This document shows, piece after piece, positions 1-30,397 of a stretch of 36,094 bases of DNA. Source of the stretch: a virus (lineage: Duplodnaviria > Heunggongvirae > Uroviricota > Caudoviricetes). The notes under the pieces were generated by a model that saw only the letters and a list, made by a program, of their open reading frames with translations, ran no database searches and was not told the origin of the DNA. Each line of letters opens with the position of its first letter. The stretch's first letter is position 1. The position numbers and the translations under genes were made by a program. The stretch is taken from IMG/VR virus record IMGVR_UViG_2869947659_000011, one strand, 5' to 3'.

Positions 1-141
1 TTACTGCTTACACTGTAAGAACGCCGCAAACTCCGCTCCCCAGAAGCTCATCCGTATTTCGCACAGCGAACCGTGCAGCATCCAGATGATGAGGATTGCC
101 GTCACGCAGAACGTGATGGCCGTAAGCGATTTTTGCGACAT
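1..141 (-). CDS. Hok/Gef-family type I toxin (small membrane peptide)
   Basis: 46-aa minus-strand ORF (ATG top at 141, TAA at 1..3) translating to MSQKSLTAITFCVTAILIIWMLHGSLCEIRMSFWGAEFAAFLQCKQ: hydrophobic N-terminal helix followed by the SLCEIR and AAF(L/M)xC motifs I recall from Hok/SrnB/PndA peptides. Too short for the ORF track. Recognition is from memory. Confidence 0.6.
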   Translation of the reverse strand: MSQKSLTAITFCVTAILIIWMLHGSLCEIRMSFWGAEFAAFLQCKQ

Positions 142-492
142 AGCGCTTGCTCCTTTTTCGGGGAGGCGCTAACCTATCATTTGCTTAGGGTAGACGGTTA
201 GGGCCTCGGTTAAACAAAAATGTTTTCCGGGGCCTTTCCACATCTGGCCTTCAGGTATTCCCTCCGACCATCAGCCGAAAGGCACCCGCGCGTAATCTAT
301 CGCTTTTTTGTTACTCCGGCAATTCTGCTCGTTAATTCTGAGGTAAGGGCAAACTCATCTGATTGTTTCCTCTGTGTGAAGTTGGCAGTTCATGCCACGG
401 GTAGACTGGCCCCCTGAATCTCCAGACAACCAGTATCACTTAAATAAGTGATAGTCTTAATACTAGTTTTTAGACTAGTCATTGGAGTACAG

Positions 493-858
493 ATGATTGA
501 TGTCTTAGGGCCGGAGAAACGCAGACGGCGTACCACACAGGAAAAGATCGCAATTGTTCAGCAGAGCTTTGAACCGGGGATGACGGTCTCCCTCGTTGCC
601 CGGCAACATGGTGTAGCAGCCAGCCAGTTATTTCTCTGGCGTAAGCAATACCAGGAAGGAAGTCTTACTGCTGTGGCCGCCGGAGAACAGGTTGTTCCTG
701 CCTCTGAACTTGCTGCCGCCATGAAGCAGATTAAAGAACTCCAGCGCCTGCTCGGTAAGAAAACGATGGAAAATGAACTCCTCAAAGAAGCCGTTGAATA
801 TGGACGGGCAAAAAAGTGGATAGCGCACGCGCCCTTATTGCCCGGGGATGGGGAGTAA
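493..858 (+). CDS. insC: IS2 transposase OrfA (InsC)
   Basis: ORF-track protein [40 protein letters not shown]... matches IS2 InsC; start taken at the internal ATG (493) rather than the track start 448. Confidence 0.9.
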
Positions 859-1721
859 GCTTAGTCAGCCGTTGTCTCCGGGTGTCGCGTGCGCAGTTGC
901 ACGTCATTCTCAGACGAACCGATGACTGGATGGATGGCCGCCGCAGTCGTCACACTGATGATACGGATGTGCTTCTCCGTATACACCATGTTATCGGAGA
1001 GCTGCCCACGTATGGTTATCGTCGGGTATGGGCGCTGCTTCGCAGACAGGCAGAACTTGATGGTATGCCTGCGATCAATGCCAAACGTGTTTACCGGATC
1101 ATGCGCCAGAATGCGCTGTTGCTTGAGCGAAAACCTGCTGTACCGCCATCGAAACGGGCACATACAGGCAGAGTGGCCGTGAAAGAAAGCAATCAGCGAT
1201 GGTGCTCTGACGGGTTCGAGTTCTGCTGTGATAACGGAGAGAGACTGCGTGTCACGTTCGCGCTGGACTGCTGTGATCGTGAGGCACTGCACTGGGCGGT
1301 GACTACCGGCGGCTTCAACAGTGAAACAGTACAGGACGTCATGCTGGGAGCGGTGGAACGCCGCTTCGGCAACGATCTTCCGTCGTCTCCAGTGGAGTGG
1401 CTGACGGATAATGGTTCATGCTACCGGGCTAATGAAACACGCCAGTTCGCCCGGATGTTGGGACTTGAACCGAAGAACACGGCGGTGCGGAGTCCGGAGA
1501 GTAACGGAATAGCAGAGAGCTTCGTGAAAACGATAAAGCGTGACTACATCAGTATCATGCCCAAACCAGACGGGTTAACGGCAGCAAAGAACCTTGCAGA
1601 GGCGTTCGAGCATTATAACGAATGGCATCCGCATAGTGCGCTGGGTTATCGCTCGCCACGGGAATATCTGCGGCAGCGGGCTTGTAATGGGTTAAGTGAT
1701 AACAGATGTCTGGAAATATAG
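816..1721 (+). CDS. insD: IS2 transposase OrfB (InsD), expressed as InsCD by -1 frameshift
   Basis: 301-aa ORF with the IS2 InsD sequence (..HSDRGSQY-like DDE core, ends ..[11 protein letters not shown]); overlaps insC as in IS2. Confidence 0.9.
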
Positions 1722-1732
1722 GGGCAACTCCA

Positions 1733-1928
1733 ACGGGATGCCCTCTGATGAGTGAATGGGGGAGGCGTGCTTTGAAGTGAATTTGTGGAAGGCTTCCAGT
1801 GTTGAGAAACATACGCCGCATTCTAGATTGTTACACTGATAATACTTTTGTCTCACGGTGTTTGAATCATTTTCCGGACGACTGGTGCGGATACGGGCAG
1901 ATGCGCCACAAAGCGGACAACGGAACAT
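1733..1928 (-). pseudogene. ogr: Ogr/Delta-family zinc-finger late-gene activator, 3' end interrupted by IS2 (native C-terminal codons continue at 396..332)
   Basis: MFRCPLCGASARIRTSRPENDSNTVRQKYYQCNNLECGVCF.. has the CxxC..CxxxxC layout of P2 Ogr. The track ORF (1692..1928) runs 13 codons into the IS2 right end. Removing IS2 and one copy of the target duplication restores an in-frame continuation ..SSEGIPWHELPTSHRGNNQMSLPLPQN with TAA at 332..334. Confidence 0.8.
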
Positions 1929-2054
1929 AGCGACCTCTCTTATTGTAGTGCTTGCACTATTCTAGGTTGTATTCTCTAAGATTTAAACATGACTTTCTCG
2001 GTAATGCTGCCAACTTACTGATTTAGTGTATGATGGTGATTTTAAGGTGCTTGC

Positions 2055-2330
2055 GTGGCTTCCATTTCCATCAGATGTCCTTCCTGCTCCGCTACTGAAG
2101 GCGTGGTGCGTAACGGCAAAAGCACTGCCGGACATCAGCGCTATCTCTGCTCTCATTGCCGTAAAACATGGCAACTACAGTTCACTTACACCGCCTCTCA
2201 GCCCGGTACGCACCAGAAAATCATTGATATGGCCATGAATGGCGTCGGATGTCGCGCCAGTGCACGCATTATGGGCGTTGGCCTCAACACGGTTTTACGT
2301 CACTTAAAAAACTCAGGCCGCAGTCGGTAA
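2055..2330 (+). CDS. insA: IS1 InsA
   Basis: 91-aa [46 protein letters not shown].. matches IS1 InsA. Confidence 0.9.
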
Positions 2331-2752
2331 CCTCGCGCATACAACCGGGCAGTGATGTGATTGTCTGCGCTGAAATGGACGAACAGTGGGGCTACGTCGG
2401 TGCTAAATCACGTCAGCGCTGGCTGTTTTACGCGTATGACAGGATACGGAGGACGGTTGTGGCGCACGTCTTCGGTGAACGCACTCTGGCCACACTGGAG
2501 CGTCTTCTGAGCCTGCTGTCGGCCTTTGAGGTCGTGGTATGGATGACGGATGGCTGGCCGCTGTATGAATCACGCCTGAAGGGAAAGCTGCACGTTATCA
2601 GCAAGCGTTACACTCAGCGCATTGAGCGACATAATCTGAATCTGAGACAACATCTGGCAAGGCTGGGACGGAAGTCACTGTCGTTCTCAAAATCGGTGGA
2701 GCTGCATGACAAGGTCATCGGGCATTATCTGAACATAAAACACTATCAGTAA
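2249..2752 (+). CDS. insB: IS1 InsB (made as InsAB' by -1 frameshift)
   Basis: 167-aa ORF overlapping the insA 3' end, typical IS1 layout. Confidence 0.85.
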
Positions 2753-2810
2753 GTTGGAGTCATTACCGACTTTCTCTATATAATGATTTTTAGCATTAGT
2801 TAATAAACGA

Positions 2811-2832
2811 ACGGCACTCTAAGGAGCGCCGT
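2811..2832 (-). terminator. Putative stem-loop terminator downstream of the 1039-aa cargo gene
   Basis: Imperfect inverted repeat ACGGCACTCT-AA-GGAGCGCCGT 9 nt past the stop codon at 2841..2843, followed on the minus strand by a U-rich stretch. Confidence 0.35.
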
Positions 2833-2840
2833 CAAAGATA

Positions 2841-5800
2841 TTATTCTGATGTCACTCTTTGCGAGTGAGCTATTTTTAAATCAGCGTTTCCTTCAAATAC
2901 TATATTCAACTCATAGTTAAGAGTTAGCTTGAATTTATCTGAGTCACTTTTGATATTCTCTGAAGTGACATTTACTAACTTATTATTATCATATTCTCTA
3001 ATAATTAATTTAGTGAAGTAGTTATCCTTTACCACAAGAGAAAATGGTTGATTAACAAATGGTAAGAAGTAAACCTTACGGGTACCGGATTCAGTAGTTA
3101 TGTTCATAGAGCCATCATCATTTTTTCTCATTAGTTCTCTGAGGTTGGGATTATCGAAAAGCATACGATTATATTGCTGAAAGATCTCTTTACTCATCAC
3201 AAGAACCAGTTTGCCAGCCAAGTCAGCAGATGATTTTATGTGATCAATAAACATATTGAAATCTTCTATTACGGTATGTTGCGAACAGCCAGTGCTAAAT
3301 AAATTTGAAAGTATTATTCTCTGGATGTCCTTGAGAATTAAGTCTGCTTGAATATCACCTTCATTGATATAAGGGATGGATTCTATTCCTTCGGCATACG
3401 GTTCTTTATCTATCTTAATAGATATCTTATGTTTTGTGAAACAATCGCTAGCCTGCTTAAAATCAATAGATTTGAAAAGTGAAAGAGGGAGCGTTTTCTT
3501 GATGCGTTTACGAAGATGTTCTGATGTTTTACGTGCAGTGCTATCTAGTCGATGTACATCTATGGCAGCATCCTGAAGTCTCATATCAAGATCTTTCTTT
3601 AGCATGTTAATATGCTCTTGAAGCAACTTTCTTAAGTTTTCTTTTTTTGTTTGGAGATCGTCCAATGTTAAAGTCAGCTTGATTTTAGTGTATTCGATGG
3701 AGTTACAAATTTTTGATAATACTCCAATGAGTCGTTGCTTCTCACGATATGTTATATAGTTGTTTTCTATTGCTTCTTTTATTTCTTTTGATACGCTATC
3801 GTTCTTGTTAGAAAAAATTAATAATAGCTGAACCCATGATTGTTCCATATCAATAAATCCACAGTCAAAAACATTACTGTAAACTCTGCCCATCACCATG
3901 TCTGTTTTATCATAGTCACGTAAACGCCTTGCTAAACTATTCATCCACCCATTGTGCTCCATATTTTCAGACCATGTCCACAGGCAGATTCTAATTAATA
4001 TCTTGATTAGTTGGCTTGCATTATCAATTTCTTCAGTGGGAGTTTCATATCCACCGGTTTGGTCAATAAGTTTACCCTCTAAAATAAGTTTAATGTAATG
4101 TGTCATTAGTTTGTCAGAAGTATTGATTCTTGATGTCAGATAAAGACATGTGCATATACGCATGTCAGTCAACGCATTTATGATGGCAATATTGAACCAC
4201 TCTCTGTCTGAATTGAAGTTTAGTTTTTTGGATATGAAAAAAACCGGGTTAAAAAGCTGGCCTTTGTAACTGTATTTTTCTACCGAATGGCTGTCAATAT
4301 TCATTGAGTGCTGCCATCGGTTAATAAGATCGACGGCTGTATCAATAGTAGAAGGATCGCGAGTCTGTGTTGCATCAATAATCATCGATGGAAGTTCTTG
4401 TAGTTGCGTTTTGCAAAATAATTCAAATAAATCTGAATTCTCTGTATTGCAGAAACGAAAGTTTATGCTTTCTTGATATTGCTCCCAAACAGTGGTATAG
4501 GTTCTTAATATACGATTATAACGTGAACGAAGCGAGGCATTTAAGAGTGATTGGTTGTTTCGGAACCATTCTGTTAATATTGACCATTGTGAACGAGTAA
4601 TTCCCATATAGATACAAAGTTCATTGCTGATAAGATGTTTTCTATTATTGATAATACGCACTCCGCTCCAAAGACATAATTCAAAAAATCTTTCAGAAAG
4701 ATTAATTTTATCCATGGAATTATTTGATATTTTATAAACTTCATCTGAAAACTCATATTGAAAACTCCGTTCAAATAATTCTGTAGTGATCAGTAAGAAG
4801 TTATTGTTGGTATTATCATCTTGAAAAAAATACAAATCGCAGAGATTATTAAAGTTATTAATTAATGCAGAGATAGCATTGTCAAAACTAATGAGATCAG
4901 AATCCCGCAGATACATATACGTATCTGCTGTTATAGCCTGCATTGTAAGACTTACGGAAAAATCTCCTCCTTTAATCGGAGCCTTATAAAAACATTGCTT
5001 AAGTATTTTTATTAATAAGCTGTCTGGTTTGATATTTTTAACGCTAAAAAGTATCTTACCCGTGGATTCTGTTTCTTTTGTACGATTATCACCAATGACA
5101 AATGACGCAAAATGATTCTTCTTTTTTAGTTGGTAATTAATAAGATTAAGAGTAAGTTGAAAAGGACGGTGATATAAACTTAACTCATCTTCCTTAGAAT
5201 AACTGCTAGCCACAGATATGTATTCTCCTTTGTAATCGGCTTGCTTGATTTCTAAATTTGAATAGTTATGTTTTTGATAGATAGGGTATAACCTAAGCTT
5301 GGCTGAGATTTTGTTACAAATATGGGGCATTACTATTTCGAAGGCAATGTATCGCTTTATAATTATTTGCCGTTTTACATCATCAAGAATTTCAAGACTC
5401 ACGATAAAGAACCAAATAGAAAGAACTATGTTTATCAAAAGCCATAATATGCTGATTAGACAAGCTATACCATAAAGATAACTTCCAAAGACAGTTTTAA
5501 TTAGTACACTGAGAAGTATAAATCCTGATAAGAAAAGCCCGCTGAGTCCAGCAAGCATGAATCCTGAGTAACGCTGATAAGCAGTTTGGGCTATTTTTCT
5601 ATCTGCCTTTTTTTGGAATAAGACACTTACTAAACCTATAACAAGAGGGTATACAATACCAATAATTGTCAATTGGCCACTTAAAATGGTTGTTTGCCAT
5701 TCGGTTAATGAATGCCTAAACGGGAAATAATGTAAAAGATTATTTTTTATAAATAATTCGTTTAAATATCCAACATAAAGTAGTACAAATGAAAAAGCTG

Positions 5801-5960
5801 ATATGCAAAGTACTGATTTAACCGGTGAGGATGTTAATCTTATGATGTTTTTTTCAATAAAATTCCATTTTAAATTCGAATAAAATGGATTTTTAACCAT
5901 TTTATTACGAACATAGTTCTTTGCTAAAATCTCTGTTGCACTTAAAAATTGTCCAATCAT
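2841..5960 (-). CDS. Large hypothetical membrane-anchored protein (1039 aa), AT-rich cargo gene; candidate accessory/defence function, family unknown
   Basis: Uninterrupted 3120-nt ORF on the minus strand. Two sampled 60-nt lines give 28-33% GC against about 60% in a sampled tape-measure line. Four hydrophobic helix-length segments in the first 190 aa (e.g. SVLCISAFSFVLLYVGYL, LTIIGIVYPLVIGLVSVLF, FMLAGLSGLFLSGFILLSVLI, LYGIACLISILWLLINIVLSIWFFIVSL), then about 850 aa of soluble sequence with a coiled-coil-like stretch (..LTLDDLQTKKENLRKLLQEHINMLKKDLDMRLQDAAIDVHRLD..). No Walker A or other motif recognised by eye. Confidence 0.8.
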   Translation of the reverse strand: MIGQFLSATEILAKNYVRNKMVKNPFYSNLKWNFIEKNIIRLTSSPVKSVLCISAFSFVLLYVGYLNELFIKNNLLHYFPFRHSLTEWQTTILSGQLTIIGIVYPLVIGLVSVLFQKKADRKIAQTAYQRYSGFMLAGLSGLFLSGFILLSVLIKTVFGSYLYGIACLISILWLLINIVLSIWFFIVSLEILDDVKRQIIIKRYIAFEIVMPHICNKISAKLRLYPIYQKHNYSNLEIKQADYKGEYISVASSYSKEDELSLYHRPFQLTLNLINYQLKKKNHFASFVIGDNRTKETESTGKILFSVKNIKPDSLLIKILKQCFYKAPIKGGDFSVSLTMQAITADTYMYLRDSDLISFDNAISALINNFNNLCDLYFFQDDNTNNNFLLITTELFERSFQYEFSDEVYKISNNSMDKINLSERFFELCLWSGVRIINNRKHLISNELCIYMGITRSQWSILTEWFRNNQSLLNASLRSRYNRILRTYTTVWEQYQESINFRFCNTENSDLFELFCKTQLQELPSMIIDATQTRDPSTIDTAVDLINRWQHSMNIDSHSVEKYSYKGQLFNPVFFISKKLNFNSDREWFNIAIINALTDMRICTCLYLTSRINTSDKLMTHYIKLILEGKLIDQTGGYETPTEEIDNASQLIKILIRICLWTWSENMEHNGWMNSLARRLRDYDKTDMVMGRVYSNVFDCGFIDMEQSWVQLLLIFSNKNDSVSKEIKEAIENNYITYREKQRLIGVLSKICNSIEYTKIKLTLTLDDLQTKKENLRKLLQEHINMLKKDLDMRLQDAAIDVHRLDSTARKTSEHLRKRIKKTLPLSLFKSIDFKQASDCFTKHKISIKIDKEPYAEGIESIPYINEGDIQADLILKDIQRIILSNLFSTGCSQHTVIEDFNMFIDHIKSSADLAGKLVLVMSKEIFQQYNRMLFDNPNLRELMRKNDDGSMNITTESGTRKVYFLPFVNQPFSLVVKDNYFTKLIIREYDNNKLVNVTSENIKSDSDKFKLTLNYELNIVFEGNADLKIAHSQRVTSE

Positions 5961-6208
5961 GAATTACTCTTCTATAAAGTGTGGGTCTACTAACTAAACT
6001 GGAACTTTTACTATTGAGTCATATTCCCTTGGACGGGATGGACTGTGAAGATTATACTTGACTTCCTCTGTCATGTGGGAAAAACATCCGTATTATTGTT
6101 AGCATCTGGTTGATGCCCCAACCTCTGACATCTAGTGGGCTGATACATTATCTTTTGTTCTTACTGTCAGTGTAGAAGCACATCTCAAAAATAATATTTT
6201 TAAGAGAT

Positions 6209-7318
6209 TTATTCTGTTTCTGCTATCCATTCCGGGATTTTTGCTTCAAGTTCAAGCTGCGTGGTAAAGCCGCTGTTATCAATGGTGTGCTCGGCTTTTG
6301 CAATAGTCCAGTCCTGATAATCAATCTCGCTTTTAAAGCCTGTCACTGTGCCATGCATTTCGGGATAGAGTTCTGTACGACCACGCGCCAGCGTGATGGA
6401 GAATGATGCGGCTCCGCGTTGTAGCTGCTGCCACTTTGCCGCCGCTGCGCGTCTTGCTGCCTGCTCGTTCTGATAAGTCTTGCGTAACACAAACACGTTG
6501 CCTTCCGCACCTTCCATATAGTCGCCTTCCCGACTGCTGCTTTTCTCCTTTTTGGGTTTTGGCGGTTTGCGGCGTTTCACGCTGACTTTTTTCTTTTTCC
6601 CGTAATTAAGATCAAGCCAGTAGGCGCGTACCCCCGTATACGCCTCGCGGTCAGCAATGCGGAACTGATGGCGATCGCCGCTGCTGCGTGTAATGGCGAA
6701 CGAGGGCAACGGCTGCCCCTGTGCGTTCACGCCACCACCTGGCATGATGAATAACAGATTGCCGCTTTTTACCGTGGCGATTGCTCCCAGCATTTCCGCC
6801 ATGCGCGTAAGAAAGGACATGTCGCTTTCTTCGGTCTGGTCGGCGTGGTCGATTTCGATATCCATCAGCATTTCGCTGATTTGCGGTTTCAGACCGTACC
6901 GATGAGTGATGGCGGATACCACACGCTCAACGGTCACATCATGCCAGGACACCTCACGTTTAACGTTAAATTCATCCCGAAAATCTGCGCTTCTGGCTGA
7001 AACAGTCAGCCTGTCCGGCGGTCCTTCGTGAGCGATTTCATCAACAATGTAAGTGCCTTTTTCTGTCAGCGGTTCCCCTTTCCAGCCAATGAGAACCGTC
7101 AGACGCGCGCCCCGTGGCGGTAGCTGCAACTGACCATCCGCATCATCCAGCGTGATGGTGAGCTGGTCCGCCTCAAATCCCCGGTTGTCGGTCAGTTACA
7201 GGCTCATCAGGCGCTCCGCCACGCCTGACAGCGTTTTACCCTCCGAAAGAATATCAAAATCCGGCATTTTCACGGGGGCCGTGCCCTGACTGAGCAATTG
7301 CATGGTGGTGTCGGTCAT
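6209..7318 (-). pseudogene. D: P2 gpD-like tail protein with an in-frame TAA stop at 7196..7198
   Basis: Track ORFs 7196..7450 and 6209..7129 are in the same frame, separated only by one TAA. The downstream part (..GEPLTEKGTYIVDEIAHEGPP.. DMSFLTRMAEMLGAIATVKSGNLLF..) resembles P2 gpD. The probable start ATG at 7318 has a GGGAGGGAG Shine-Dalgarno just upstream. Confidence 0.7.
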
Positions 7319-7475
7319 CTGCTCCCTCCCTGTGCGGCATGGTCGCATGTGCGTGCGGAGGGGGTTACTGCTTTTTGTTGTCGCCGTGGCGGGAGAACGG
7401 CGCAGGGGTGAGATTACGCGCGTGGTGGGTGATGATTGTTGCTGAATCATTTAACGGATACAAGGGGCTGAAGCT

Positions 7476-8660
7476 ATGAGTGAAACTCGTTTTCATGGTG
7501 CCCGTGTTACGGAGAATACCGACCTGGTAACAGCGATTAACGATGTTGATTCCAGCGTTATCGGTATCGTGGCAACGGCGGATGATGCGGACGCGAAGCT
7601 GTTCCCGCTGAACAAGCCCACACTGCTGACCCGCGTCAATGACGTGCTGGGAAAATGCGGGACAACGGGGACGCTTTATCGTGCGCTTAAGGCCATCGCA
7701 GACCAGGTGAGCACAAAGGTGATCGTCGTTCGCGTGGCTGAACACAAAGAAGAAGACGGAAAGACGCAGGATCAACTGGTTATCGGTGGTTCTGAGGATG
7801 ACGGCAGCTATACGGGGATGTATGCGCTGCTTGTTGCAGAGCAGGATGAAAGCATCGGATACCGTCCGCGTATTCTGGCCGCGCCGGAGCTGGACACGGA
7901 GGCGGTAACAAAATCCCTGTGCGTGATTGCAGATAAACTGCGCGCGTTTGTGTATGCCTCATGTCATGGCTGTAACACGATGGCCGAGGCAATTACCTAC
8001 CGCCAGAAATTCAACGAACGTGAGGTGATGCTCTTATGGCCGGACTTCATCGCCTACAACCCGAAAAATGGCAAAAACGAAACGTTCCCCGCGCCTGCCT
8101 ATGCGTGCGGCCTTCGTGCGTACATTGACCATGAACAGGGATGGCACAAATCGCTGTCCAACGTTCCGGTTAAAAATGTGCTGGGGATGTCGAGGCATGT
8201 GTTCTGGTCGTTGCAGGCCGAAGACAGCGATGCCAACAGCCTCAACAACAAAGAAATCACGACCATTATTCGTCGCAACGGGTTCCGCTTCTGGGGTAAC
8301 CGCACACCGGAAACGAACGCCTACATCTTTGAGGTGTATACCCGAACCGCACAGGTGCTGGCTGATTCAATTGCGGAAGCGCAGTTTGAAACCATCGACA
8401 GTCCACTGACGCCTGCGAATGTGAAGGATGTTATCAGTGCCATCAGGGCAAAACTGGATTCACTGGTGACTGCCGGGAAACTGATTGGCGCGGAGTGCTG
8501 GTATGACGTGGTGGATAACAGCACCACGGATTTACGTCAGGGACGTGTGCGTATTCGCTACAAATATACGCCCGTTCCGCTACTGGAAGACATGGAGCTT
8601 TACCAGACGTTTACTGATGAATACTTTGAACCCGCATTTGCGGTGCTGGGAGGTGCCTGA
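7476..8660 (+). CDS. FI: Tail sheath protein (P2 gpFI-like)
   Basis: 394-aa ORF; the N-terminal region (..IGIVATADDADAKLFPLNKPTLLTRVND..) resembles P2 FI as remembered; size and position before the tail tube gene fit. Confidence 0.88.
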   Translation: MSETRFHGARVTENTDLVTAINDVDSSVIGIVATADDADAKLFPLNKPTLLTRVNDVLGKCGTTGTLYRALKAIADQVSTKVIVVRVAEHKEEDGKTQDQLVIGGSEDDGSYTGMYALLVAEQDESIGYRPRILAAPELDTEAVTKSLCVIADKLRAFVYASCHGCNTMAEAITYRQKFNEREVMLLWPDFIAYNPKNGKNETFPAPAYACGLRAYIDHEQGWHKSLSNVPVKNVLGMSRHVFWSLQAEDSDANSLNNKEITTIIRRNGFRFWGNRTPETNAYIFEVYTRTAQVLADSIAEAQFETIDSPLTPANVKDVISAIRAKLDSLVTAGKLIGAECWYDVVDNSTTDLRQGRVRIRYKYTPVPLLEDMELYQTFTDEYFEPAFAVLGGA

Positions 8661-9170
8661 TGGCTGTGCCAAAACATCTTCGCTTTTTTACGCTGTTTGT
8701 GGATGGTGAAAACGAAGTGGGTAATGTGACGTCCGTCACTCTGCCTAAGCTGACGCGCAAAACCGACAGCTACCGGGGTGGTGGCATGATGGGTGCGGTA
8801 AGTATTGATCTCGGTCTGGACGACTCCGCGCTTGATGCGAGCTTTGTCATGGGGGCGCAGTTCGTGAGCTGTTCCTTAAGTATGGCGGCACGATTGACGG
8901 CACGCTGCTGCGTTTTGCGGGTGAATACTACACCGATGCAGAAAGCGACCTGTATGAAGTCGAAATGCGCGGACGTGTGACGGAAATTGATATGGGGGAA
9001 GCCAAACAGGGCGAAGCCACATCACACACTTACGCCATTAAAACACCTACTACAAGCTGAGTGTTAACGATCGCCCGTTGTGGGAGATTGACCTGCTGAA
9101 CTTCATTTACCGGAAGGACGGCAAGGACATTGTGCCCGATCGCATCCGTTCCGCGCTTGGGCTTGGCTGA
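8660..9170 (+). pseudogene. FII: Tail tube protein (P2 gpFII-like), two frameshifts as sequenced
   Basis: P2 FII-like sequence is split over three frames: frame 1 to about 8855 (..LPKLTRKTDSYRGGGMMGAVSIDLGLDD..), frame 2 (..RFAGEYYTDAESDLYEVEMRGRVTEIDMGEAKQGE..), frame 3 (..TYYKLSVNDRPLWEIDLLNFIYRKDGKDIVPDRIRSALGLG*). The shifts sit at a G5 run (8851..8855) and an A4 run (9040..9043). Confidence 0.8.
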
Positions 9171-9225
9171 TAAGTAATATGCTGGCGGCGCAGTGCGTCG
9201 CCTCTGACTGAAAAGGAGACAACAG

Positions 9226-9600
9226 ATGAAAGACATCGATACTGAAACCCGGAATAACACCGTGGCGGATAATGTGACGGCAGTTGAGGATATGGCTGTC
9301 GAACGTGGCGTAAAACTGACCCGACCAATTGAGCGTGGTGGCGAAAAAATCACGTATGTGGAGATCACCGGGGCTATTGAGCAGGCTGGATCCCTGTGTG
9401 GTCTGTCGCTGTCTGATGTGCTGAATCTGAAAGCGGATACCATGTTCACGCTGTTGCCTCGCGTGACCTCGCCACGACTGGATGAAGTGATGATTAAAAA
9501 AATGTCGTCACGCGATTTTATTCAGTTGTGCGCTGTGGCTGTAAATTTTATGAGCGAGCCAGACTCTGGCGCGAAGAGCGTGCAGGAGACGGCAGCGTAA
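9226..9600 (+). CDS. E: Tail assembly chaperone (P2 gpE-like)
   Basis: 124-aa ORF between the tail tube and tape measure genes; the -1 frame ORF 9528..9764 overlaps its 3' end as expected for E/E'. Confidence 0.75.
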   Translation: MKDIDTETRNNTVADNVTAVEDMAVERGVKLTRPIERGGEKITYVEITGAIEQAGSLCGLSLSDVLNLKADTMFTLLPRVTSPRLDEVMIKKMSSRDFIQLCAVAVNFMSEPDSGAKSVQETAA

Positions 9601-9764
9601 TCACCCTGGTGTGCTTTGAGCACATCGAAGATCTGGTGGCGGATATTGCCGCCATTTTTAACTGGTCGCCCGCCGAAATCTTCATGATGACGCCCGGCGA
9701 AGTGGTTAGCTGGCGTGAGCGGGCGGCACTTCGTAGCGGGAATGCAGACAATGAAGACTCTTGA
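9528..9764 (+). CDS. E' extension, reached by programmed -1 frameshift from E (E+E' fusion)
   Basis: ORF in the -1 frame relative to E, opening just upstream of the slippery heptamer and ending inside the start of T. Confidence 0.55.
   Translation: MRCGCKFYERARLWREERAGDGSVITLVCFEHIEDLVADIAAIFNWSPAEIFMMTPGEVVSWRERAALRSGNADNEDS
9543..9549 (+). promoter_or_regulatory. Candidate -1 ribosomal slippery heptamer A_AAT_TTT for E to E'
   Basis: AAATTTT fits the X_XXY_YYZ pattern in the E frame (codons gta aat ttt) and lies 15 nt after the E' frame opens. Confidence 0.45.
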
Positions 9765-12558
9765 TATCCGGGTCGCTTTCAGCGCCGTTGACAGGCTGAC
9801 CCGGCCTGCCGAAAACGCCCGCCGCCTGATGGGGCAGTTTGGTGACTCCATCCAGCGAACGCAGGGGGCGATCAAAAATCTCGAGCGTCAGGCGCGATCA
9901 TTTGAGCGCGCCCGTGACGCTGTCAGTAAAGCGGATGCGGGCATCGTGAAAGCACGACGCCAGCTTAACGCCCTTAATCAGTTACAACGCACGGGTACAG
10001 TGCTCAGCGAAAAACAACAAAAGCTGATGCAGCAGTTAAGCACCCGGCTTGAACGCCTGAATGAATCGCGCACACGGGAAATTCAGAAAATGCGGGAGCT
10101 TGGCGGAGAGCTGAAACGCCACGGCATTTCCCTGACAGGCAGCGATAACACCATCCAGCAGGCCATCAGACGCACCGAACAGTACAACAACCAGCTTGAA
10201 CGCGAACGGCAGGCGCTTGCGCGTGTAACACGGGCGCGTGAGCGGTATTCGCGCGCGCAGGAAACAGCGGGAAAACTGAAAACAGGTGGTGCGCTGGCAA
10301 TTGGTGCGGCAGCGGCGGGCGGCTATGCTGCCGGGCGTTTTTTGCAGCCTGCGATCGGGTTCGGCAAAGAGATGTCCCGCGTTCAGGCACTGACGCGAAT
10401 CGACCAGAACAGCCTGCAGTTTAAGGCGCTGCGTGAGCAGGCGTTAAAACTTGGCTCTGAAACGCAGTTCACCGCAGGCGATGCCGCCAGTGGACAGGCA
10501 TTTCTTGCAATGGCTGGCTTTACACCACAGGCCATTCAGGCTGCGCTCCCTGGCGTACTGAGCATGGCAACGGCTGGCGGTATGGACCTCGGTGAGACGG
10601 CGGATATTGACTCAAATATTCTGACGCAGTTCGGTCTTTCTGCTGACCAGATGGACCGGGTCGGCGACACACTCACCGCAGCGTTTACCCGTACCAACAC
10701 TGACCTTCGCGCACTGGGTGAAACCATGAAATATGCAGGTCCGGTGGCGGGTAAGCTGGGAATATCTCTGGAGCAGGCCGCAGCGATGGCGGGCGTGCTG
10801 GCGAATATGGGTATCAGGGGGAGTGATGCTGGTACGGCAATGCGTGCCAGCCTGGCTCGTCTGGCATCACCGCCAAAGGCGGCAGCAGAGGCGCTGAAAG
10901 AGCTTGGCGTGTCTGTCTCGGATGCCGGGGGCAAAATGCGCCCGATGGAGGATGTGCTGGCTGACCTTTATAAAGCTACCCGCAAATACGGGGAAGTTGA
11001 CCGGGTATCGTTCTTTAAGGACATTGCCGGAGAAGAGGCTTTCACATCATTTATGGCCCTCGTTGATGCGGCAGGTGACGGCTCCTTACCCAAACTGAGA
11101 AAAGAACTTGAAGGCGCGCGCGGTGAGGCTGAACGCACGGCAAAGGTTATGGCCAACAACCTTGACGGCGATCTGAAATCACTCAGCAGTGCATGGGAAG
11201 GGTTGCGCATCCGCATTGCAGATCTGATTGACGGTCCGCTGCGTTCTGTCACGCAGTGGCTCACGCGTGTGGTATCAAAGGTGACGGCGCTGGCGCAGGC
11301 CCATCCCGCACTGACGCGCCAGCTACTGATTGCAGGCGGTGCATTGCTGGCAATGACTGCAACGGTTGGCTCGTTGTCGCTGGCTATTGGTGTGCTTGCT
11401 GGCCCGCTGGCAAAACTGCGTCTTGGTTTTTCCCTCCTGACCGGATCAATGAATGCTGTCAGGGTTCTGCCAGCACTATGGGGAATGGTGACGGGTTCCG
11501 TTTCTTTACTGGGAGGCGCTATCGGGGCGTTGTTCAGTCCGGTTGGTCTTATCGTGGCTGCGCTTGCCGGAGCTGCCGTTCTTATCTGGAAATACTGGGA
11601 TCCCATCAGGGCATTTTTTGCCGGGGTGTTCAGCGGGATTATGGAAAGGCTGACCCCGTTGCGCGAAACCTTTGAACGGTTTGGTCCTGTTTTTGACGCA
11701 ATCGCGAGTGGGATCAGCCAGGTGTTTAACTGGTTTAAATCGCTGCTGTCACCGATGGAGTCCAGCAAGGAAACTCTGGATAAATGTACCAGTGCTGGCG
11801 AGATATTCGGTAACGTTCTTGGCGGTGCGTTACAACTTGTTCTGACACCTGCAAAAATGTTGCTGGATACGCTGGCGTGGATACTTGAAAAGCTTGGTGT
11901 GCTTCCGGATGAAGCGGAAAGGGCGCGCAAGAAAATCGAAGACGCACAGCGTGCGGCCATTCTTCAGGACAAGGTTGCCTTGCTTCAGGGGGACCTGGCG
12001 AAAATCAATCCGCCGAAGCCTGTGGAAAATGGCAATGGCACCGGAGGTGATAACCCCAAAGACAATAAACCGCTCACAGACAGTAATACCGGTACGCTGC
12101 GCAGACTCAGCAAAATTGCTGATAACACAGGTAAGCTGGTTGAGGAGACGAAAAAACGCATTGGCCCCGGCGATATTGTCTTTAAAAACCTGCCCCGAGC
12201 ACTTGCTGTTCGTGGGGAGTGGCAGGAGCGGAAGATTGCGCAGGTCAGTAAGCCTGCCCCCGCAATTAATATCACACCCGTGGTTCCGGCTCCGCTGCCT
12301 CCGGCGCTGGTCCCTGTTGTTGCGGCCAGCTCCCGCCCGGTGGCGGAGGCTATACGATCTCCAGTGGCATCAGTTCCTGTAACTTCCCGTAACCGGGAGC
12401 CTGTTGCCTCCGGATTTGGTGGTGAAATTCATGTTCATCTGCATAACGTTGTTACGCAGAATCCCCGCGAACTGGCGAAACTGGTCGGTGAAATGGTCAG
12501 GGCAGAAATGGAACGGCGCGCCCGTGCCGGGCGTGGCTGTTTTTACGATAAAGATTGA
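9715..12558 (+). CDS. T: Tail tape measure protein (P2 gpT-like)
   Basis: 947-aa ORF; long coiled-coil N-terminal region and Gly/Ala-rich hydrophobic central block; position after E/E'. Confidence 0.88.
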   Translation: MSGRHFVAGMQTMKTLDIRVAFSAVDRLTRPAENARRLMGQFGDSIQRTQGAIKNLERQARSFERARDAVSKADAGIVKARRQLNALNQLQRTGTVLSEKQQKLMQQLSTRLERLNESRTREIQKMRELGGELKRHGISLTGSDNTIQQAIRRTEQYNNQLERERQALARVTRARERYSRAQETAGKLKTGGALAIGAAAAGGYAAGRFLQPAIGFGKEMSRVQALTRIDQNSLQFKALREQALKLGSETQFTAGDAASGQAFLAMAGFTPQAIQAALPGVLSMATAGGMDLGETADIDSNILTQFGLSADQMDRVGDTLTAAFTRTNTDLRALGETMKYAGPVAGKLGISLEQAAAMAGVLANMGIRGSDAGTAMRASLARLASPPKAAAEALKELGVSVSDAGGKMRPMEDVLADLYKATRKYGEVDRVSFFKDIAGEEAFTSFMALVDAAGDGSLPKLRKELEGARGEAERTAKVMANNLDGDLKSLSSAWEGLRIRIADLIDGPLRSVTQWLTRVVSKVTALAQAHPALTRQLLIAGGALLAMTATVGSLSLAIGVLAGPLAKLRLGFSLLTGSMNAVRVLPALWGMVTGSVSLLGGAIGALFSPVGLIVAALAGAAVLIWKYWDPIRAFFAGVFSGIMERLTPLRETFERFGPVFDAIASGISQVFNWFKSLLSPMESSKETLDKCTSAGEIFGNVLGGALQLVLTPAKMLLDTLAWILEKLGVLPDEAERARKKIEDAQRAAILQDKVALLQGDLAKINPPKPVENGNGTGGDNPKDNKPLTDSNTGTLRRLSKIADNTGKLVEETKKRIGPGDIVFKNLPRALAVRGEWQERKIAQVSKPAPAINITPVVPAPLPPALVPVVAASSRPVAEAIRSPVASVPVTSRNREPVASGFGGEIHVHLHNVVTQNPRELAKLVGEMVRAEMERRARAGRGCFYDKD

Positions 12559-12564
12559 GGAGTC

Positions 12565-13059
12565 ATGGCCATGATGATGATCTACGGCATGTTTGTTTTT
12601 GAGCTGCGCACGCTGCCGCATCAGCAGTTACAGCAAAACAAAAGCTGGCGGCATGTGAAAAATGAACGCGTTAACCGTTCAGCAAGCTGGCAGTATATCG
12701 GTGCAGGTGATGATCGCATCGTTCTTTCTGGTGTGCTTTATCCTGAAATTACAGGTGGCGAAGTGTCGCTGTCGCTGCTGACTACGCAGGCGTATACAGG
12801 ACGACCCTGGCCTTTGATTGATGGCGTCGGGCAGATTTACGGCATGTATGTCCTGACTGAAACGAATACGACCCGCTCCGAGTTTGATCGCTACGGTAAG
12901 GCGAAAAAGATAGAATTTTCACTGACTCTTGAACGCTGTGATGAGGATTTGCGGGAGCGCCTGCAATCCTCATCGTTCAGTGATATGCTGTCCGGCTTCA
13001 AAGATAAGGTGACATCATCTCTTAACAGCGCGGCCAGTTCAGTTAAAGGGCTGTTCTGA
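12565..13059 (+). CDS. U: Tail protein (P2 gpU-like)
   Basis: 164-aa ORF directly after T, same size class as P2 U and similar as remembered. Confidence 0.8.
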   Translation: MAMMMIYGMFVFELRTLPHQQLQQNKSWRHVKNERVNRSASWQYIGAGDDRIVLSGVLYPEITGGEVSLSLLTTQAYTGRPWPLIDGVGQIYGMYVLTETNTTRSEFDRYGKAKKIEFSLTLERCDEDLRERLQSSSFSDMLSGFKDKVTSSLNSAASSVKGLF

Positions 13060-13068
13060 TTTAACACA

Positions 13069-13098
13069 AAAACCGCTAATGGTCAGATTAGCGGTTTT
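13069..13098. terminator. Perfect 12-bp-stem hairpin between the convergent U and invertase genes (bidirectional terminator candidate)
   Basis: AAAACCGCTAAT-GGTCAG-ATTAGCGGTTTT; the right arm overlaps the last codons of the invertase gene. Confidence 0.5.
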
Positions 13099-13687
13099 CA
13101 TTTTCCTGAGTCTGCCCGGTTGTTTCTTCAGTCTGTATATCGCCTACAGGGTGATAACGATAAATCGTCGATGTGCCAATGCCGTAAATTATTGCCAGTT
13201 GTTTTCTGTCGTGCCCGTTTTTGATTAGCCTTGCTATTTGCTCATGCTGTTCTTTTGTCAGCTTCGGTCGACGTCCGCCTGTGCGCCCCCTTGCGCGCGC
13301 TGCCGCCAGCCCGGCCAGTGTACGTTCAACAATTAATTCACGTTCCATTTCAGCCAGGGCACCCATCACGTGGAAGAAAAAACGCCCCATTGGAGAAGAT
13401 GTGTCTATGCTGTCGGTCAGACTGCGAAAATTAATCCCTCGCTCCCGTAGTTCCCCGACGAGAGAAATCAGATGTTTCATGCTTCGCCCGAGGCGATCCA
13501 GTTTCCAGACAACCAGCGTGTCACCTTTTTGAAGGCGCTTTAAAGCGCGTTTTAATCCCGGTCGGTCTGTCTTTGTCCCGCTTAATTTATCTTCAAATAT
13601 TTGTTCACATCCTGCACAAACAAGAGCGTTTCGTTGCAGGTCTGTATTCTGGTCATTTGTTGATACCCTTACATAGCCAATCAGCAC
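13088..13687 (-). CDS. Serine DNA invertase, Gin/Cin/Pin/Hin family
   Basis: From the GTG at 13687 the product begins MLIGYVRVSTNDQNTDLQRNALVCAGCEQIFEDKLSGTKTDRPGLKRAL..., which closely matches the remembered N-termini of Mu Gin and e14 Pin (catalytic Ser in YVRVST, C-terminal HTH). The track start (TTG at 13705) is probably 6 codons too long. Confidence 0.9.
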   Translation of the reverse strand: MLIGYVRVSTNDQNTDLQRNALVCAGCEQIFEDKLSGTKTDRPGLKRALKRLQKGDTLVVWKLDRLGRSMKHLISLVGELRERGINFRSLTDSIDTSSPMGRFFFHVMGALAEMERELIVERTLAGLAAARARGRTGGRRPKLTKEQHEQIARLIKNGHDRKQLAIIYGIGTSTIYRYHPVGDIQTEETTGQTQENENR

Positions 13688-13741
13688 ACTGAATCTCCCG
13701 TCCAAAAGCGCAAATCATGCCATGCAGGCCAGAAACGGCCA

Positions 13742-13767
13742 TTATTTAAAACCTCGGTTTACAGGAA
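13742..13767. promoter_or_regulatory. Left inversion crossover site (gix/pix-like), between the invertase gene and the silent fibre cassette
   Basis: TTATTTAAAACCTCGGTTTACAGGAA differs at about 2 positions from Mu gixR as remembered and is the inverted partner of the site at 16417..16442 (shared 12-bp core ACCTCGGTTTAC / GTAAACCGAGGT). Confidence 0.7.
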
Positions 13768-14627
13768 ACGGTAAACAGGGCTGGTAACGCCGTGCAAAAA
13801 AATGGCGATACCTTGTCCGGTGGGCTTACTTTTGAAAATGACTCAATCCTTGCCTGGATTCGAAATACTGACTGGGCGAAGATTGGATTTAAAAATGATG
13901 CCGATGGTGACACTGATTCATACATGTGGTTTGAAACAGGCGACAACGGCAATGAATATTTCAAATGGAGAAGCCGCCAGAGCACCACAACAAAAGACCT
14001 GATGACGCTGAAATGGGATGCACTAAATATTCTTGTTAATGCTGTCATTAATGGCAGTCTTGGAGTTGGTTCGACGAATGCGTTAGGTGGTAGCTCTATT
14101 GTTCTTGGTGATAATGACACCGGATTTAAACAGAATGGAGACGGTATTCTGGATGTTTATGCTAATAGTCAGCGTGTATTCCGCTTTCAGAATGGAGTGG
14201 CTATTGCTTTTAAAAATATTCAGGCCGGGGATGGTAAAAAATTCACGCTATCCAGCTCCAACAACTCCACAAAGAATGCAACGTTTAATTTATGGGGTGC
14301 TTCAACCCGTCCAGTAGTTGCAGAGTTAGGCGATGAGGCAGGATGGCATTTCTATAGCCAGCGAAATACAGATAACTCGGTAATATTTTCTGTTAACGGT
14401 CAGATACAGCCCAGCAACTGGGGAATTTTGATTCACGCTATGTAAAAGATGTTCGCCTGGGTACGCGTGTTGTTCAATTGATGGCGCGTGGTGGTCGTTA
14501 TGAAAAAGCCGGACACGCAATTACCGGATTAAGAATCATTGGTGAAGTAGATGGCGATGATGAAGCCATCTTCAGACCAATACAAAAATACATCAATGGC
14601 ACATGGTATAACGTCGCACAGGTGTAA
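13768..14627 (+). pseudogene. Alternative tail-fibre C-terminal segment (Sv'-like), promoterless silent copy, frameshifted near 14424..14428
   Basis: The reading frame is open from the crossover site (..NLGLQETVNRAGNAVQKNGDTLSGGLTF..), in phase with H across the site. The conserved fibre C-terminus ..DSRYVKDVRLGTRVVQLMARGGRYEKAGHAITGLRIIGEVDGDDEAIFRPIQKYINGTWYNVAQV* is in the next frame after a missing base in GGAATTTT. Confidence 0.6.
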
Positions 14628-14630
14628 ATT

Positions 14631-15157
14631 ATGCAGCATTTAAAAAATATTAAGTCCGGAAATCCAAAAACAAAAGAACAATATCAGCTAACAAAGAATT
14701 TTGATGTTATCTGGTTATGGTCCGAAGACGGTAAAAACTGGTATGAGGAAGTAAATAACTTTCAGGACGACACCATAAAGATTGTATACGACGAAAATAA
14801 TATTATTGTTGCCATAACTAAAGATGCCTCAACGCTTAATCCGAAGGCTTTAGTGTCGTTGAGATTCCAGATATAACAGCCAATCGTCGTGCCGATGATT
14901 CAGGGAAGTGGATGTTTAAGGACGGAACTGTGGTTAAGCGGATTTATACAGCAGACGAACAGCAACAACAGGCCGAATCACAAAAGGTCGCGTTGCTTTC
15001 TGAAGCTGAAAGCGTTATTCAGCCACTGGAACGCGCTGTCAGGCTGAATATGGCGATGGATGAGGAACGCACACGACTGGAGTCATGGGAACGCTACAGC
15101 GTTCTGGTCAGCCGTGTGGATACAGCAAATCCCGAATGGCCACAAAAGCCTGAGTAA
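14631..15157 (+). pseudogene. Alternative tail fibre assembly chaperone (Tfa'), frameshifted near 14843..14848
   Basis: Track ORFs 14631..14876 and 14912..15157 together match the opposite-strand Tfa ([22 protein letters not shown].. then ..[28 protein letters not shown]). Reading continues in the +1 frame through ..[28 protein letters not shown]... Confidence 0.65.
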
Positions 15158-15162
15158 AAATT

Positions 15163-15182
15163 AAGGCCCAATATCGGGCCTT
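15163..15182. terminator. Hairpin between the convergent tfa' and tfa genes
   Basis: AAGGCCC-AATATC-GGGCCTT lies between the two stop codons (15155..15157 and 15186..15188). Confidence 0.5.
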
Positions 15183-15185
15183 CTC

Positions 15186-15719
15186 TCATTCTGGTTGTTC
15201 GGGAAACGTTACTGGCAGGCTGGAGGGGTCTGTAGATTCGACTTTCTGCGCATAGAGCATCCACTCGGTTAATTTTTGTTTATTCTCGTCGGAAATGATG
15301 CCCAGCCGTAGCTGTGAGTCCCATAGCTGGGTTTTATCCCTGACAAGTTGCAACAGGCTTTGCTTTTCATTTTCCGCTTGTTGCCTCTGCTCTTCCTCGG
15401 TATAAGTTCGCTTTATCACTACGCCATCTTTGAACAACCATTTCCCCGAAATATCAGCCCGGCGATTTGCTGTAATATCAGGTAATTCAACGACGCTTGC
15501 GCCTTCCGGATTAATTGCTGAAACATCCTTTTCAATACAAATAATAACGCCGTTATGGTAATAGACCATTTTCAAAGTGTCTGGCTGGAAATTCTTTTGT
15601 TCCTCATACCAGTTTTTTCCATCATCTGAATAAAGCCATTTGATGTTAAATTGCTTTGTTAGCTGGTATTGCTCTTTTGTTTTAGGGTTGCCAGCAGTAA
15701 TGTTTTTTAAGTGCATCAT
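15186..15719 (-). CDS. Tail fibre assembly chaperone (Tfa/gpG-like), expressed orientation
   Basis: 177-aa ORF directly after H; about 70% similar over its length to the tfa' copy; Tfa-like sequence as in Mu U and e14 TfaE. Confidence 0.8.
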   Translation of the reverse strand: MMHLKNITAGNPKTKEQYQLTKQFNIKWLYSDDGKNWYEEQKNFQPDTLKMVYYHNGVIICIEKDVSAINPEGASVVELPDITANRRADISGKWLFKDGVVIKRTYTEEEQRQQAENEKQSLLQLVRDKTQLWDSQLRLGIISDENKQKLTEWMLYAQKVESTDPSSLPVTFPEQPE

Positions 15720-15792
15720 CGTTAAATACTCCCCGCGTTATACCACGTCCCATTAATGCAATACTGAATTGGCCTTGCCTGTGTTGTATCAA

Positions 15793-17706
15793 TTAATTCA
15801 TCACGGTTTCCGTTAACTGAACCCGTAACGACATAACCTGACCTGTCAGACCAGCCGGACCATTCCATGTCTGAACAGATGACAGACCGCCAAGGCGAAT
15901 ACCTGTAATAAACCTTGAGTTACATTCTGCCCGCGTATATGCACCAACATCTCCCGCTGAAGGTTTTCGTGTCGTGGTATAGAAATCTGACCAACCTAAT
16001 TCAACCCCATAACCATCACGAGCCGACCTGTAGGAAATGCCACCATTTTTATAATTCACACGGAATTGTACGGCAGGACAGCTACCAGCATTTATATTAA
16101 AGTGAAGAATTAATGCAGATGCACCACCAATCAGGGCGTTATATGCACCACTATCCCAATTCCATCCAACGGATGTATCACCATTAACAGTATTACCTGT
16201 TTGTCGGAGTGCAAATGCATTGACATTTTTGGCACTAATTGAAATATCGCTAGAACCATCAAAACCAACTCCAGCAATTTTTCGTGCTGTTTTCAGCTTT
16301 GTTGCAGTAGCGGCATTGCCGGACAGTTCCCCAGAAAGGCCACCGCTGAATGTTTGTCGATTGGTCCAGGTATTCGCTGTACTGAGTAACGGTATTTTCT
16401 CCCCGCTTGTGCCGAGTTCTCGTAAACCGAGGTATTCGATAACGGCAGCAACGGTCGATTTCGCAAGAATATCCCGCCCGACTTTTGTCAGGGTTGCCAG
16501 GCTGGCGACATCATTCCCCGTAAAATACGGAAACCTGTCTGCCGCAGTAGCAAGCCCGGCCAGCGCCGTCAGGGTGGCATCTTTCGGTTGCTTACCCGCA
16601 AGCGCGTTAGTCATGGTGGTCGCAAAATTCGGGGCGTTTCCCAGCGCCGCCGCTAACTCGTTCAGCGTATTCAGTGCGTCAGGTGACGAATCTACAAGGG
16701 CGGCAATCGCAGCCATAACGAAAGCCGTGCTTGCGATTTGGGTATTATTCGTTCCCTGTCGCGCAGTTGGCGTTGTTGGCGTTCCGGTCAGCGCAGGACT
16801 GTTTAAGGGCGCTTTCTTGTTCGTTTCATCCATTACCGCCTTAACCGCTTTCGATGTCGCGGCCAGTGTTTCAGACGTGCTGTTGGTGGCACTACTGAGC
16901 TGGACTATCCCTTTTTGTGCCGTCGTGGCGTCCTGAGCGGTATATTTTGCGTTAGCAAGGTCATACGCGGCCTTTACTGCTTTCGGCGTTGCAGCCTGCG
17001 TTTCAGACGTGCTGTTGGTGGCGCTACTGAGCTGGACAAGGCCTTTTCGCGTCGTGCTGGCATCCTGCGCAGTATATTTACCGTTAGCAAGATCATACGC
17101 GGCCTTTACTGCTTTCGGCGTTGCAGCCTGCGTTTCAGACACGCTGTTAGTGGCGCTACTGAGTTGAACAAAGCCTTTTGCGGTCAGCGAGGCGTCCGGG
17201 TGACGTCGTGACTGTTCATGCTCTTTCAGTTTGTCATCCACGTAATCCACTGTGGCCATCACCATGGTGTTGTCCACGGTAAGCGCCACGGTGGCAGTGC
17301 TGGATACGGTCAGAATGGTGCGAAATGTTTGTGCACGACCGGACCCTTCGGCAACGGCTGGCTTGTAACTTTCGGCAGTATTTCCCACCGCGATTAAATC
17401 GCCGTGCTCATCAAATACACCAATTTCCCGGATCCAGAATCCGCCCGTTTCAGGAGGAATAACCAGCTCCGCAATAATGCGGTTCTGATGTGTTGCGTCC
17501 AGGATGACGCGATTAACAGTATGTCGCCACACCTCATGCACCAGACGGGTCTGCTTACTGTCTGGTGTGGGCAACGTGCCGCCACCGTCGCCCACGGCCA
17601 TATGAGTCAGGCGGACAGGCTTACCATCTGGCGCGGCTACCTGAGCTAATTTTTTTGCACCCGTATCGGTGATAATGGTTTTAAATTTTCGTGTTGTGGT
17701 ACTCAT
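15793..17706 (-). CDS. H: Tail fibre protein (P2 gpH-like): constant N-terminal part joined to the currently expressed variable C-terminal segment
   Basis: 637-aa ORF; three tandem 38-aa repeats of the phage tail-fibre repeat type (..KGLVQLSSATNSTSETQAATPKAVKAAYDLANAKYTAQDA..); the crossover site is embedded in frame at codon ~424. Confidence 0.88.
   Translation of the reverse strand: MSTTTRKFKTIITDTGAKKLAQVAAPDGKPVRLTHMAVGDGGGTLPTPDSKQTRLVHEVWRHTVNRVILDATHQNRIIAELVIPPETGGFWIREIGVFDEHGDLIAVGNTAESYKPAVAEGSGRAQTFRTILTVSSTATVALTVDNTMVMATVDYVDDKLKEHEQSRRHPDASLTAKGFVQLSSATNSVSETQAATPKAVKAAYDLANGKYTAQDASTTRKGLVQLSSATNSTSETQAATPKAVKAAYDLANAKYTAQDATTAQKGIVQLSSATNSTSETLAATSKAVKAVMDETNKKAPLNSPALTGTPTTPTARQGTNNTQIASTAFVMAAIAALVDSSPDALNTLNELAAALGNAPNFATTMTNALAGKQPKDATLTALAGLATAADRFPYFTGNDVASLATLTKVGRDILAKSTVAAVIEYLGLRELGTSGEKIPLLSTANTWTNRQTFSGGLSGELSGNAATATKLKTARKIAGVGFDGSSDISISAKNVNAFALRQTGNTVNGDTSVGWNWDSGAYNALIGGASALILHFNINAGSCPAVQFRVNYKNGGISYRSARDGYGVELGWSDFYTTTRKPSAGDVGAYTRAECNSRFITGIRLGGLSSVQTWNGPAGLTGQVMSLRVQLTETVMN
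16417..16442. promoter_or_regulatory. Right inversion crossover site (gix/pix-like) inside the tail fibre gene
   Basis: TTCTCGTAAACCGAGGTATTCGATAA is the inverted partner of 13742..13767 and encodes ..EYLGLRE.. in H; the Sv' frame reads ..NLGLQE.. across its partner, so inversion keeps the frame. Confidence 0.65.
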
Positions 17707-17708
17707 GC

Positions 17709-19128: not shown

Positions 19129-19131
19129 GAT

Positions 19132-19482
19132 TTACTCCCTCAGCGTGATGGTTAATTCAACATTCTGCATGGTCTGCATGACAGTGCCCGACAGCGTCAC
19201 CCCGGCGCGGCCTCCTGCCTTCCAGACAACGTCGATAGCGTCCAGGGCAATGCGGGGTTCCCATCGTGTCAGCGCAATCACGGCAGCACTCATGCATTGC
19301 AGACGCGTGGTGTTATTCATGGGTTCGTCAATCAAATCAGGCACAAGGCTGCCATATTCCCGTCGCATAACCCGGCTTGCCAGCGGGGTGGTCAGGATGT
19401 CCCTGACTGACTGTTTCAGGTGCTCCATATCGTTCAGGTTTCCCGTTCCGTCCGGGTTCATTCCTGTGTAGCGGGTTGTCAC
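19132..19482 (-). CDS. W: Baseplate wedge protein (P2 gpW-like)
   Basis: 116-aa ORF; size and position match P2 W. Confidence 0.82.
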   Translation of the reverse strand: MTTRYTGMNPDGTGNLNDMEHLKQSVRDILTTPLASRVMRREYGSLVPDLIDEPMNNTTRLQCMSAAVIALTRWEPRIALDAIDVVWKAGGRAGVTLSGTVMQTMQNVELTITLRE

Positions 19483-22406: not shown

Positions 22407-22408
22407 TG

Positions 22409-24027: not shown

Positions 24028-24072
24028 TTTTGCTCTCCGTTACAGGCGGGCATGATGCCCGCCGTGAGTTGA

Positions 24073-30393: not shown

Positions 30394-30397
30394 TGGT

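Follow-up and report, generated by a model that had tools for sequence, protein, structure and literature searches.

The tail tube gene FII of a P2-like prophage raises the question of whether the two frameshifts that interrupt it, both of them at homopolymer runs, are errors of the assembly or real decay of the gene. We refer to the whole stretch of DNA analyzed here, the 36,094 nucleotides of virus record IMGVR_UViG_2869947659_000011, as the window. An initial annotation, made from the sequence alone, had grouped the FII frameshifts with lesions in D, N, Sv', and tfa' and had offered two explanations for all of them, systematic homopolymer error or the decay of a defective prophage, between which it could not decide on the sequence alone.

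The window is a defective P2-like prophage that adjoins ihfA/pheT in the clade formed by Shigella boydii and S. flexneri serotype 6. It comes from record CP026766.1, with 100% identity over positions 1..18980 and 15148..35978. Its gene layout was established from lists of open reading frames (ORFs), from annotated E. coli relatives, and by tblastn with each reference protein (Table 1). As in P2, the order is D (on the opposite strand), FI, FII, E/E', T, and U. FII starts at position 8660, between FI on one side and E/E' and T on the other, which is its place in P2, and the annotated relatives show the same order.

Table 1. Features of the 36,094-nucleotide window; positions are counted from its first nucleotide.
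Feature	Position	Strand	Remarks
hok, ogr remnant, IS elements			First block in the gene order of the window
IS block: IS3-family element, second ogr-like copy, IS1	402..2767		ogr region disrupted
1039-aa cargo gene	2841..5960	-	Between ogr and D
D pseudogene	6209..7318	-	Nonsense mutation at codon 41 (TCA to TAA, 7196..7198)
FI, sheath	7476..8660	+	Directly before FII
FII, major tail tube pseudogene	8660..9170	+	Three frames; tblastn, alignment, restored ORF, Pfam PF04985
FII, G5 run (G6 in the intact allele)	8851..8855	+	First 1-base deletion, after codon 65
FII, premature TGA	8978..8980	+	Closes the 106-aa truncated product
FII, A4 run (A5 in the intact allele)	9040..9043	+	Second 1-base deletion
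FII, native stop codon	9168..9170	+	Now in the third frame; tblastn, restored ORF
E-like gene, 124 aa	9226..9600		After FII
GpE (E')	9609..9764		Frame open from 9528
T, tape measure	9751..12558		Followed by U
cin invertase	13088..13705	-	Followed by the invertible tail-fibre segment
Cin-invertible tail-fibre segment, 2.7 kb	13738..16446		Imperfect inverted repeats 13738-13767 and 16417-16446
Sv' deletion, G5 to G4	14420..14423
tfa' deletion, C3 to C2	14841..14842
H 3' end deletion, G3 to G2	15857..15858		637 aa instead of 661 aa in relatives; last ~44 residues replaced
H, I, J, W, V, S, R, lysis genes, X, L, M, N, O (minus strand), then P, Q			After the invertible segment
Capsid gene N pseudogene	24073..25124	-	1-base deletion at ~24948 (TT to T on the coding strand); split into 60 + 290 aa
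IS3-family element	31004..32517		At the site of a ~4.45-kb loss: 5' part of parM, replication gene A, small early genes
Early region, truncated, then integrase			End of the window

When the intact 170-aa E. coli tube protein was compared with the window by tblastn, it matched in three pieces that together cover residues 1 to 170: residues 1-66 in frame 2 (8660..8857), residues 60-129 in frame 1 (8836..9045), and residues 122-170 in frame 3 (9015..9167). The switches of frame thus lie exactly at the G and A runs to which the initial annotation had assigned them, and the same kind of search bore out that D, N, Sv', and tfa' are broken as well. In an alignment with the FII allele of E. coli 95-3192, the sole differences were G6 to G5, A5 to A4, and one substitution. 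The two deletions sit in the longest G run of the ancestral gene and in its only A5 run. Reinsertion of one G and one A restored an ORF of 513 nucleotides, the 170-aa product of which is identical to WP_000290450.1 except for K22N.

FII is therefore no longer one continuous reading frame of about 170 codons but contains two frame changes. The ORF that starts at the native ATG encodes 65 native residues followed by 41 out-of-frame residues, and it ends at position 8980 after 106 codons. This 106-aa product matches only profile positions 1-61 of the 165 positions of the Pfam family Phage_tube (PF04985). The likeness of the restored window protein to P2 gpFII was judged by the intact E. coli relative that differs from it by K22N alone, and this relative matches the profile over its full length (positions 1-165 of 165, 159.6 bits, E value of 7.5e-47). 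FII of the window differs from P2 gpFII in being cut by two one-base deletions, and it is a pseudogene of the PF04985 tube family rather than a functional member.

The initial annotation had proposed a comparison with closely related prophages, and this comparison proved decisive. We aligned 14 sequences over the region corresponding to 6213..13730, namely, the window, nine other assemblies of the Shigella clade, and four intact E. coli prophages. Both FII deletions were present in all ten Shigella-clade sequences, and all four E. coli references had the intact allele. Among the carriers of both deletions are S. boydii Sb227 (CP000036), S. boydii ATCC 8700 (CP026731), and S. flexneri 6 strain 64-5500 (CP026811), and the lesions were also found in S. 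boydii 3594-74 and in the WGS records UAUR01 and UAUO01. These carriers are independent sequencing projects; we take Sb227 to be Sanger sequenced, and UAUR01 and UAUO01 are presumably NCTC PacBio assemblies. PMC8767353 describes serotype 6 of S. flexneri as nearer to S. boydii than to the rest of S. flexneri. The exact 106-aa product was encoded in 1068 blocks of the collection and on 953 public contigs, most of them 5 to 20 kb long, and includes ABB66010.1 of S. boydii Sb227 as well as a protein of S. boydii 3594-74. A look-up of the 31-aa middle-frame ORF (8965..9060) in the collection returned no gene record, so that the A4 site was confirmed at the DNA level, through the loci that encode the D product.

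Read-level support for the FII alleles was obtained indirectly, through Logan contigs, which we assume to be mostly derived from short reads. The exact D remnant of the window retrieved contigs of two read sets, ERR6005793 (with 20 similar places) and SRR6373751. Both assemblies contained the G5 and A4 alleles and lacked G6 and A5. Over 8.4 kb they were 99.98% and 100% identical to the window with no indels, and the SRR6373751 contig, the nearest stand-in for reads of the sequenced strain itself, matched it without a single difference over 2742..11129. Both contigs stop about 26 bases inside an IS1 end, which we read as typical of short-read k-mer assembly.

We then considered whether the frameshifts might be homopolymer under-calls of a long-read assembly that hide an intact gene. 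Both lesions are indeed one-base homopolymer deletions, and such artefacts do occur in related assemblies. Three sister assemblies of the same series, CP026797.1, CP026731.1, and CP026866.1, have lost bases from numerous G/C runs, which disrupts D, T, the cargo gene, and other genes, and these losses look like uncorrected long-read consensus errors. Similarly, the FII run of E. coli RM12275-C1 is G5, compared with G6 in the other O145 assemblies, and the annotation of this genome marks a frameshift in the tape-measure gene too. The FII deletions resemble these artefacts in being short-homopolymer deletions that break an ORF, but they differ from them in distribution and in kind. Apart from the FII deletions, every indel in the 7.5-kb alignment occurred in a single assembly, or once in two (CP026797, CP026731, CP026866), and all were deletions in G/C runs. 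The FII deletions, on the other hand, are clade-wide, include an A run, recur in assemblies of different projects and in two independent read-set assemblies, and yield a truncated product that is found on hundreds of contigs.

The E. coli background argues in the same direction. Among 5426 complete genomes, 1088 records matched the site of the G run and 895 that of the A run; the exact G5 context was found in 3 of the former, and the exact A4 context in none of the latter. The FII sites are therefore not systematically miscalled, and the A4 site in particular is not error prone. Furthermore, the window assembly showed no private indel relative to its relatives over about 27 kb outside the invertible segment. 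The suggestion of a systematic homopolymer error was not supported by this comparison: there was no private indel with respect to the Shigella relatives across 2768..13730, and the window was 100% identical to Logan assemblies over 2742..11129 and 17111..31032. The ten-assembly alignment and the two read-set assemblies thus ruled out an assembly error in FII, a reading that we regard as extremely improbable.

The two deletions do not carry equal weight. The change from G6 to G5 recurs on several E. coli allele backgrounds (product variants P0003 and P0012-P0014), including the three complete genomes mentioned above, which represent different strains, and 98 contigs encode the truncated product in its K22 form (P0003). 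The FII G tract is a recurrent deletion site, and since it shortens sporadically in unrelated E. coli assemblies, G5 alone is weaker evidence than G5 together with A4.

A G tract of recurrently changing length could also point to a gene that is still expressed, either through ribosomal or transcriptional slippage or through reversible changes in tract length that leave FII full length in part of the population. The tail gene pair directly downstream lends this some plausibility, since, as read by eye, it probably uses a programmed -1 frameshift: A AAT TTT at 9543..9549 is a canonical -1 slippery heptamer located in the 124-aa E-like gene, and the GpE frame is open over 9528..9764. This heptamer is probably no lesion but the site at which the tail assembly chaperone pair normally undergoes its programmed frameshift. 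In FII, however, the frame-change sites read GTC ATG GGG GCG and ATT AAA ACA CCT, and inspection of the sequence revealed no slippery heptamer of the form X XXY YYZ at either of them. For slippage to be productive, runs of five G or four A are short. A full-length product would call for two separate corrections of a net shift of -2. G5 and A4 were present without length variation in all 12 sequences of the Shigella lineage examined. A tube protein produced in this way would also lack its assembly partners, as D and N are nonfunctional and gene A is gone. With no slippery motif, no tract variation in 12 sequences, and dead partner genes, programmed frameshifting and phase variation were rejected, and continued expression of full-length FII appears to us hardly credible.

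Mutual compensation of the two frameshifts was ruled out as well. Both are one-base deletions that add up to a shift of -2, and since the first is followed by a stop codon at 8978..8980, the second cannot make up for it. Judging from the sequence, no functional tail tube would be possible.

The remainder of the prophage was found to be damaged in a similar way. The 306-aa remnant of D was called in nearly all Shigella loci, and its exact product was present on 54 contigs. At the N site, none of nine related contigs (L018-L026, including two Logan contigs) showed an indel relative to the window; the split into 60 and 290 aa was called in seven of the nine, and the 290-aa product was found on 690 contigs. 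The initial annotation had not made use of the structural lesions, namely, the missing gene A and the IS elements in the ogr region, which show defectiveness independently. When the 940-aa A protein was used as a tblastn query, no match was found anywhere in the window. parM has lost its 5' third and is truncated next to the IS3-family element, and draft contigs of related strains end at the boundaries of the IS elements at 402..2767 and 31004..32517. The nonsense mutation in D, the loss of gene A, and the IS-interrupted ogr region thus render the prophage defective independently of any homopolymer.

FII itself has been hit again in other strains. Four other Shigella assemblies (L007, L010, CP026866, and CP026797) carry an IS1 copy within the 3' end of the pseudogene, at 9113..9121. 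The stretch 9113..9121 of the window aligns to both flanks of the inserted element, as if a 9-bp target site had been duplicated. The landing of IS1 in FII of four strains is as expected for neutral sequence.

Two further differences from E. coli are neither errors nor clear inactivations. In the 3' end of M, the small terminase gene, a 10-bp unit (TTTTGCTGCT on the plus strand; 23275..23306, with M on the minus strand) is repeated in tandem, with three copies in the window, one copy in E. coli, and two to four copies in other Shigella isolates. The copy number alters the C-terminal frame, with predicted products of 248, 275, or 276 aa. At the start of gene O (25968..25975, minus strand), an extra A in an A7 run shifts the frame and an overlapping ATG restores it, so that the product starts with MKKKTSRKK instead of MANEKKTSRKK. 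This change is common to all Shigella relatives and may be tolerated.

Taken together, these data indicate that FII of this defective P2-like prophage is almost certainly a true pseudogene that was inherited and that both deletions are real and became fixed in the common ancestor of the lineage. Of the two explanations originally offered, real decay is the one that applies to FII, D, and N, because their lesions are shared by descent among numerous independent assemblies and read sets, and the intact E. coli prophages do not have them. As to the mechanism, two independent one-base deletions, G6 to G5 and A5 to A4, could have arisen by replication slippage in short homopolymers. The G-run deletion shifts the frame after codon 65, so that only the 106-aa fragment that ends at the TGA can be made, and the A-run deletion lies downstream of it. 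Given the nonsense mutation in D, the frameshift in N, the IS elements in the ogr region, and the missing gene A, FII was presumably no longer under selection, and replication slippage in an unselected gene would be the simplest cause. Because FII differs from the intact E. coli alleles by only one substitution, its inactivation is recent. This fits with the young age of the Shigella lineages.

The lesions had initially been pooled as one kind. They fall into two classes: the two FII deletions and the lesions of D and N are inherited, and this part of the list stands as decay, whereas the deletions in Sv', tfa', and H are not shared by relatives. H had been listed among the intact genes together with T and the 1039-aa gene. 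The latter two are intact, but H carries the one-base deletion given in Table 1. All three unshared deletions lie in the Cin-invertible segment, which is in the opposite orientation in Sb227, CP026866, and UAUO01. None of them was found in any related Shigella assembly covering the sites, including drafts that are 99.9 to 99.98% identical to the window. Consistently, a look-up in the collection returned the frameshifted 637-aa H and the N-terminal tfa' fragment from CP026766.1 only; the C-terminal tfa' fragment also occurred in an error-prone sister assembly and at the start of a contig. Unlike the FII sites, these deletions are thus largely private to one assembly, the exception being Sv'.

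These features are what would be expected if the three deletions were consensus errors from a culture containing both orientations of the segment. All are deletions of G or C, the signature of the evident errors in the sister assemblies, and all fall within 2.7 kb of the approximately 30 kb assessed (p ~7e-4 under random placement), while elsewhere the window agrees exactly with read-set assemblies over the two regions given above. This suggests that mixed segment orientation may have caused the errors. On the other hand, the Sv' G4 allele is also present in a Logan contig of the independent run ERR10497656 that is 100% identical to 13527..14571, so that this deletion at least may be real in some strain, and the Sv' deletion was found again in the diverged Mu-like prophage of AP024518.1. 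Real lineage-specific indels do occur within the segment, as illustrated by an additional A near 14640 in Sb227, UAUO01, and CP026811. On balance, we lean slightly toward consensus errors for Sv', tfa', and H. These deletions are the only candidates for assembly error here, and they could instead be strain-specific mutations.

A different view of the FII lesion itself is that the loss of the tail tube through the G tract is recurrent and selected and that the element persists as a disarmed vehicle for a gene useful to the host, possibly one for defence. This view builds on the occurrence of G6 to G5 on several independent E. coli and Shigella backgrounds and on the preservation of the 1039-aa cargo gene in the well-assembled strains examined. 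Among the Shigella loci, only that of CP026731, an error-prone assembly, has a broken copy. One E. coli relative annotates the gene as "MFS transporter," and its copy is 99.5% identical to that of the window; searches of the protein against Pfam and PADLOC returned no match. We consider such a selected loss very unlikely.

Pseudogenes, expanded IS elements, and cryptic prophages are known features of Shigella genomes. The inherited pseudogene favored here resembles the gene decay described for Shigella (PMC3218036) in that frameshift, nonsense, and IS lesions are inherited by the clade and the genes are intact in the E. coli relatives. It differs in its target, since that literature centers on chromosomal metabolic or virulence-related genes and the gene concerned here belongs to a prophage. 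We found no paper on this prophage FII gene; public annotation records it solely as a CDS that is truncated or frameshifted. In that form the truncated FII has been publicly annotated from the Sb227 genome onward, and it is a case of ordinary cryptic-prophage decay.

Overall, these data indicate that the choice between error and decay can be made without raw reads, by testing whether independent genome assemblies and read-set assemblies have a lesion in common by descent. For the annotation of this genome, FII, D, and N should be treated as pseudogenes, and the frameshifts in Sv', tfa', and H should be marked as unverified. The biological weight of the finding is small, and its value is practical.
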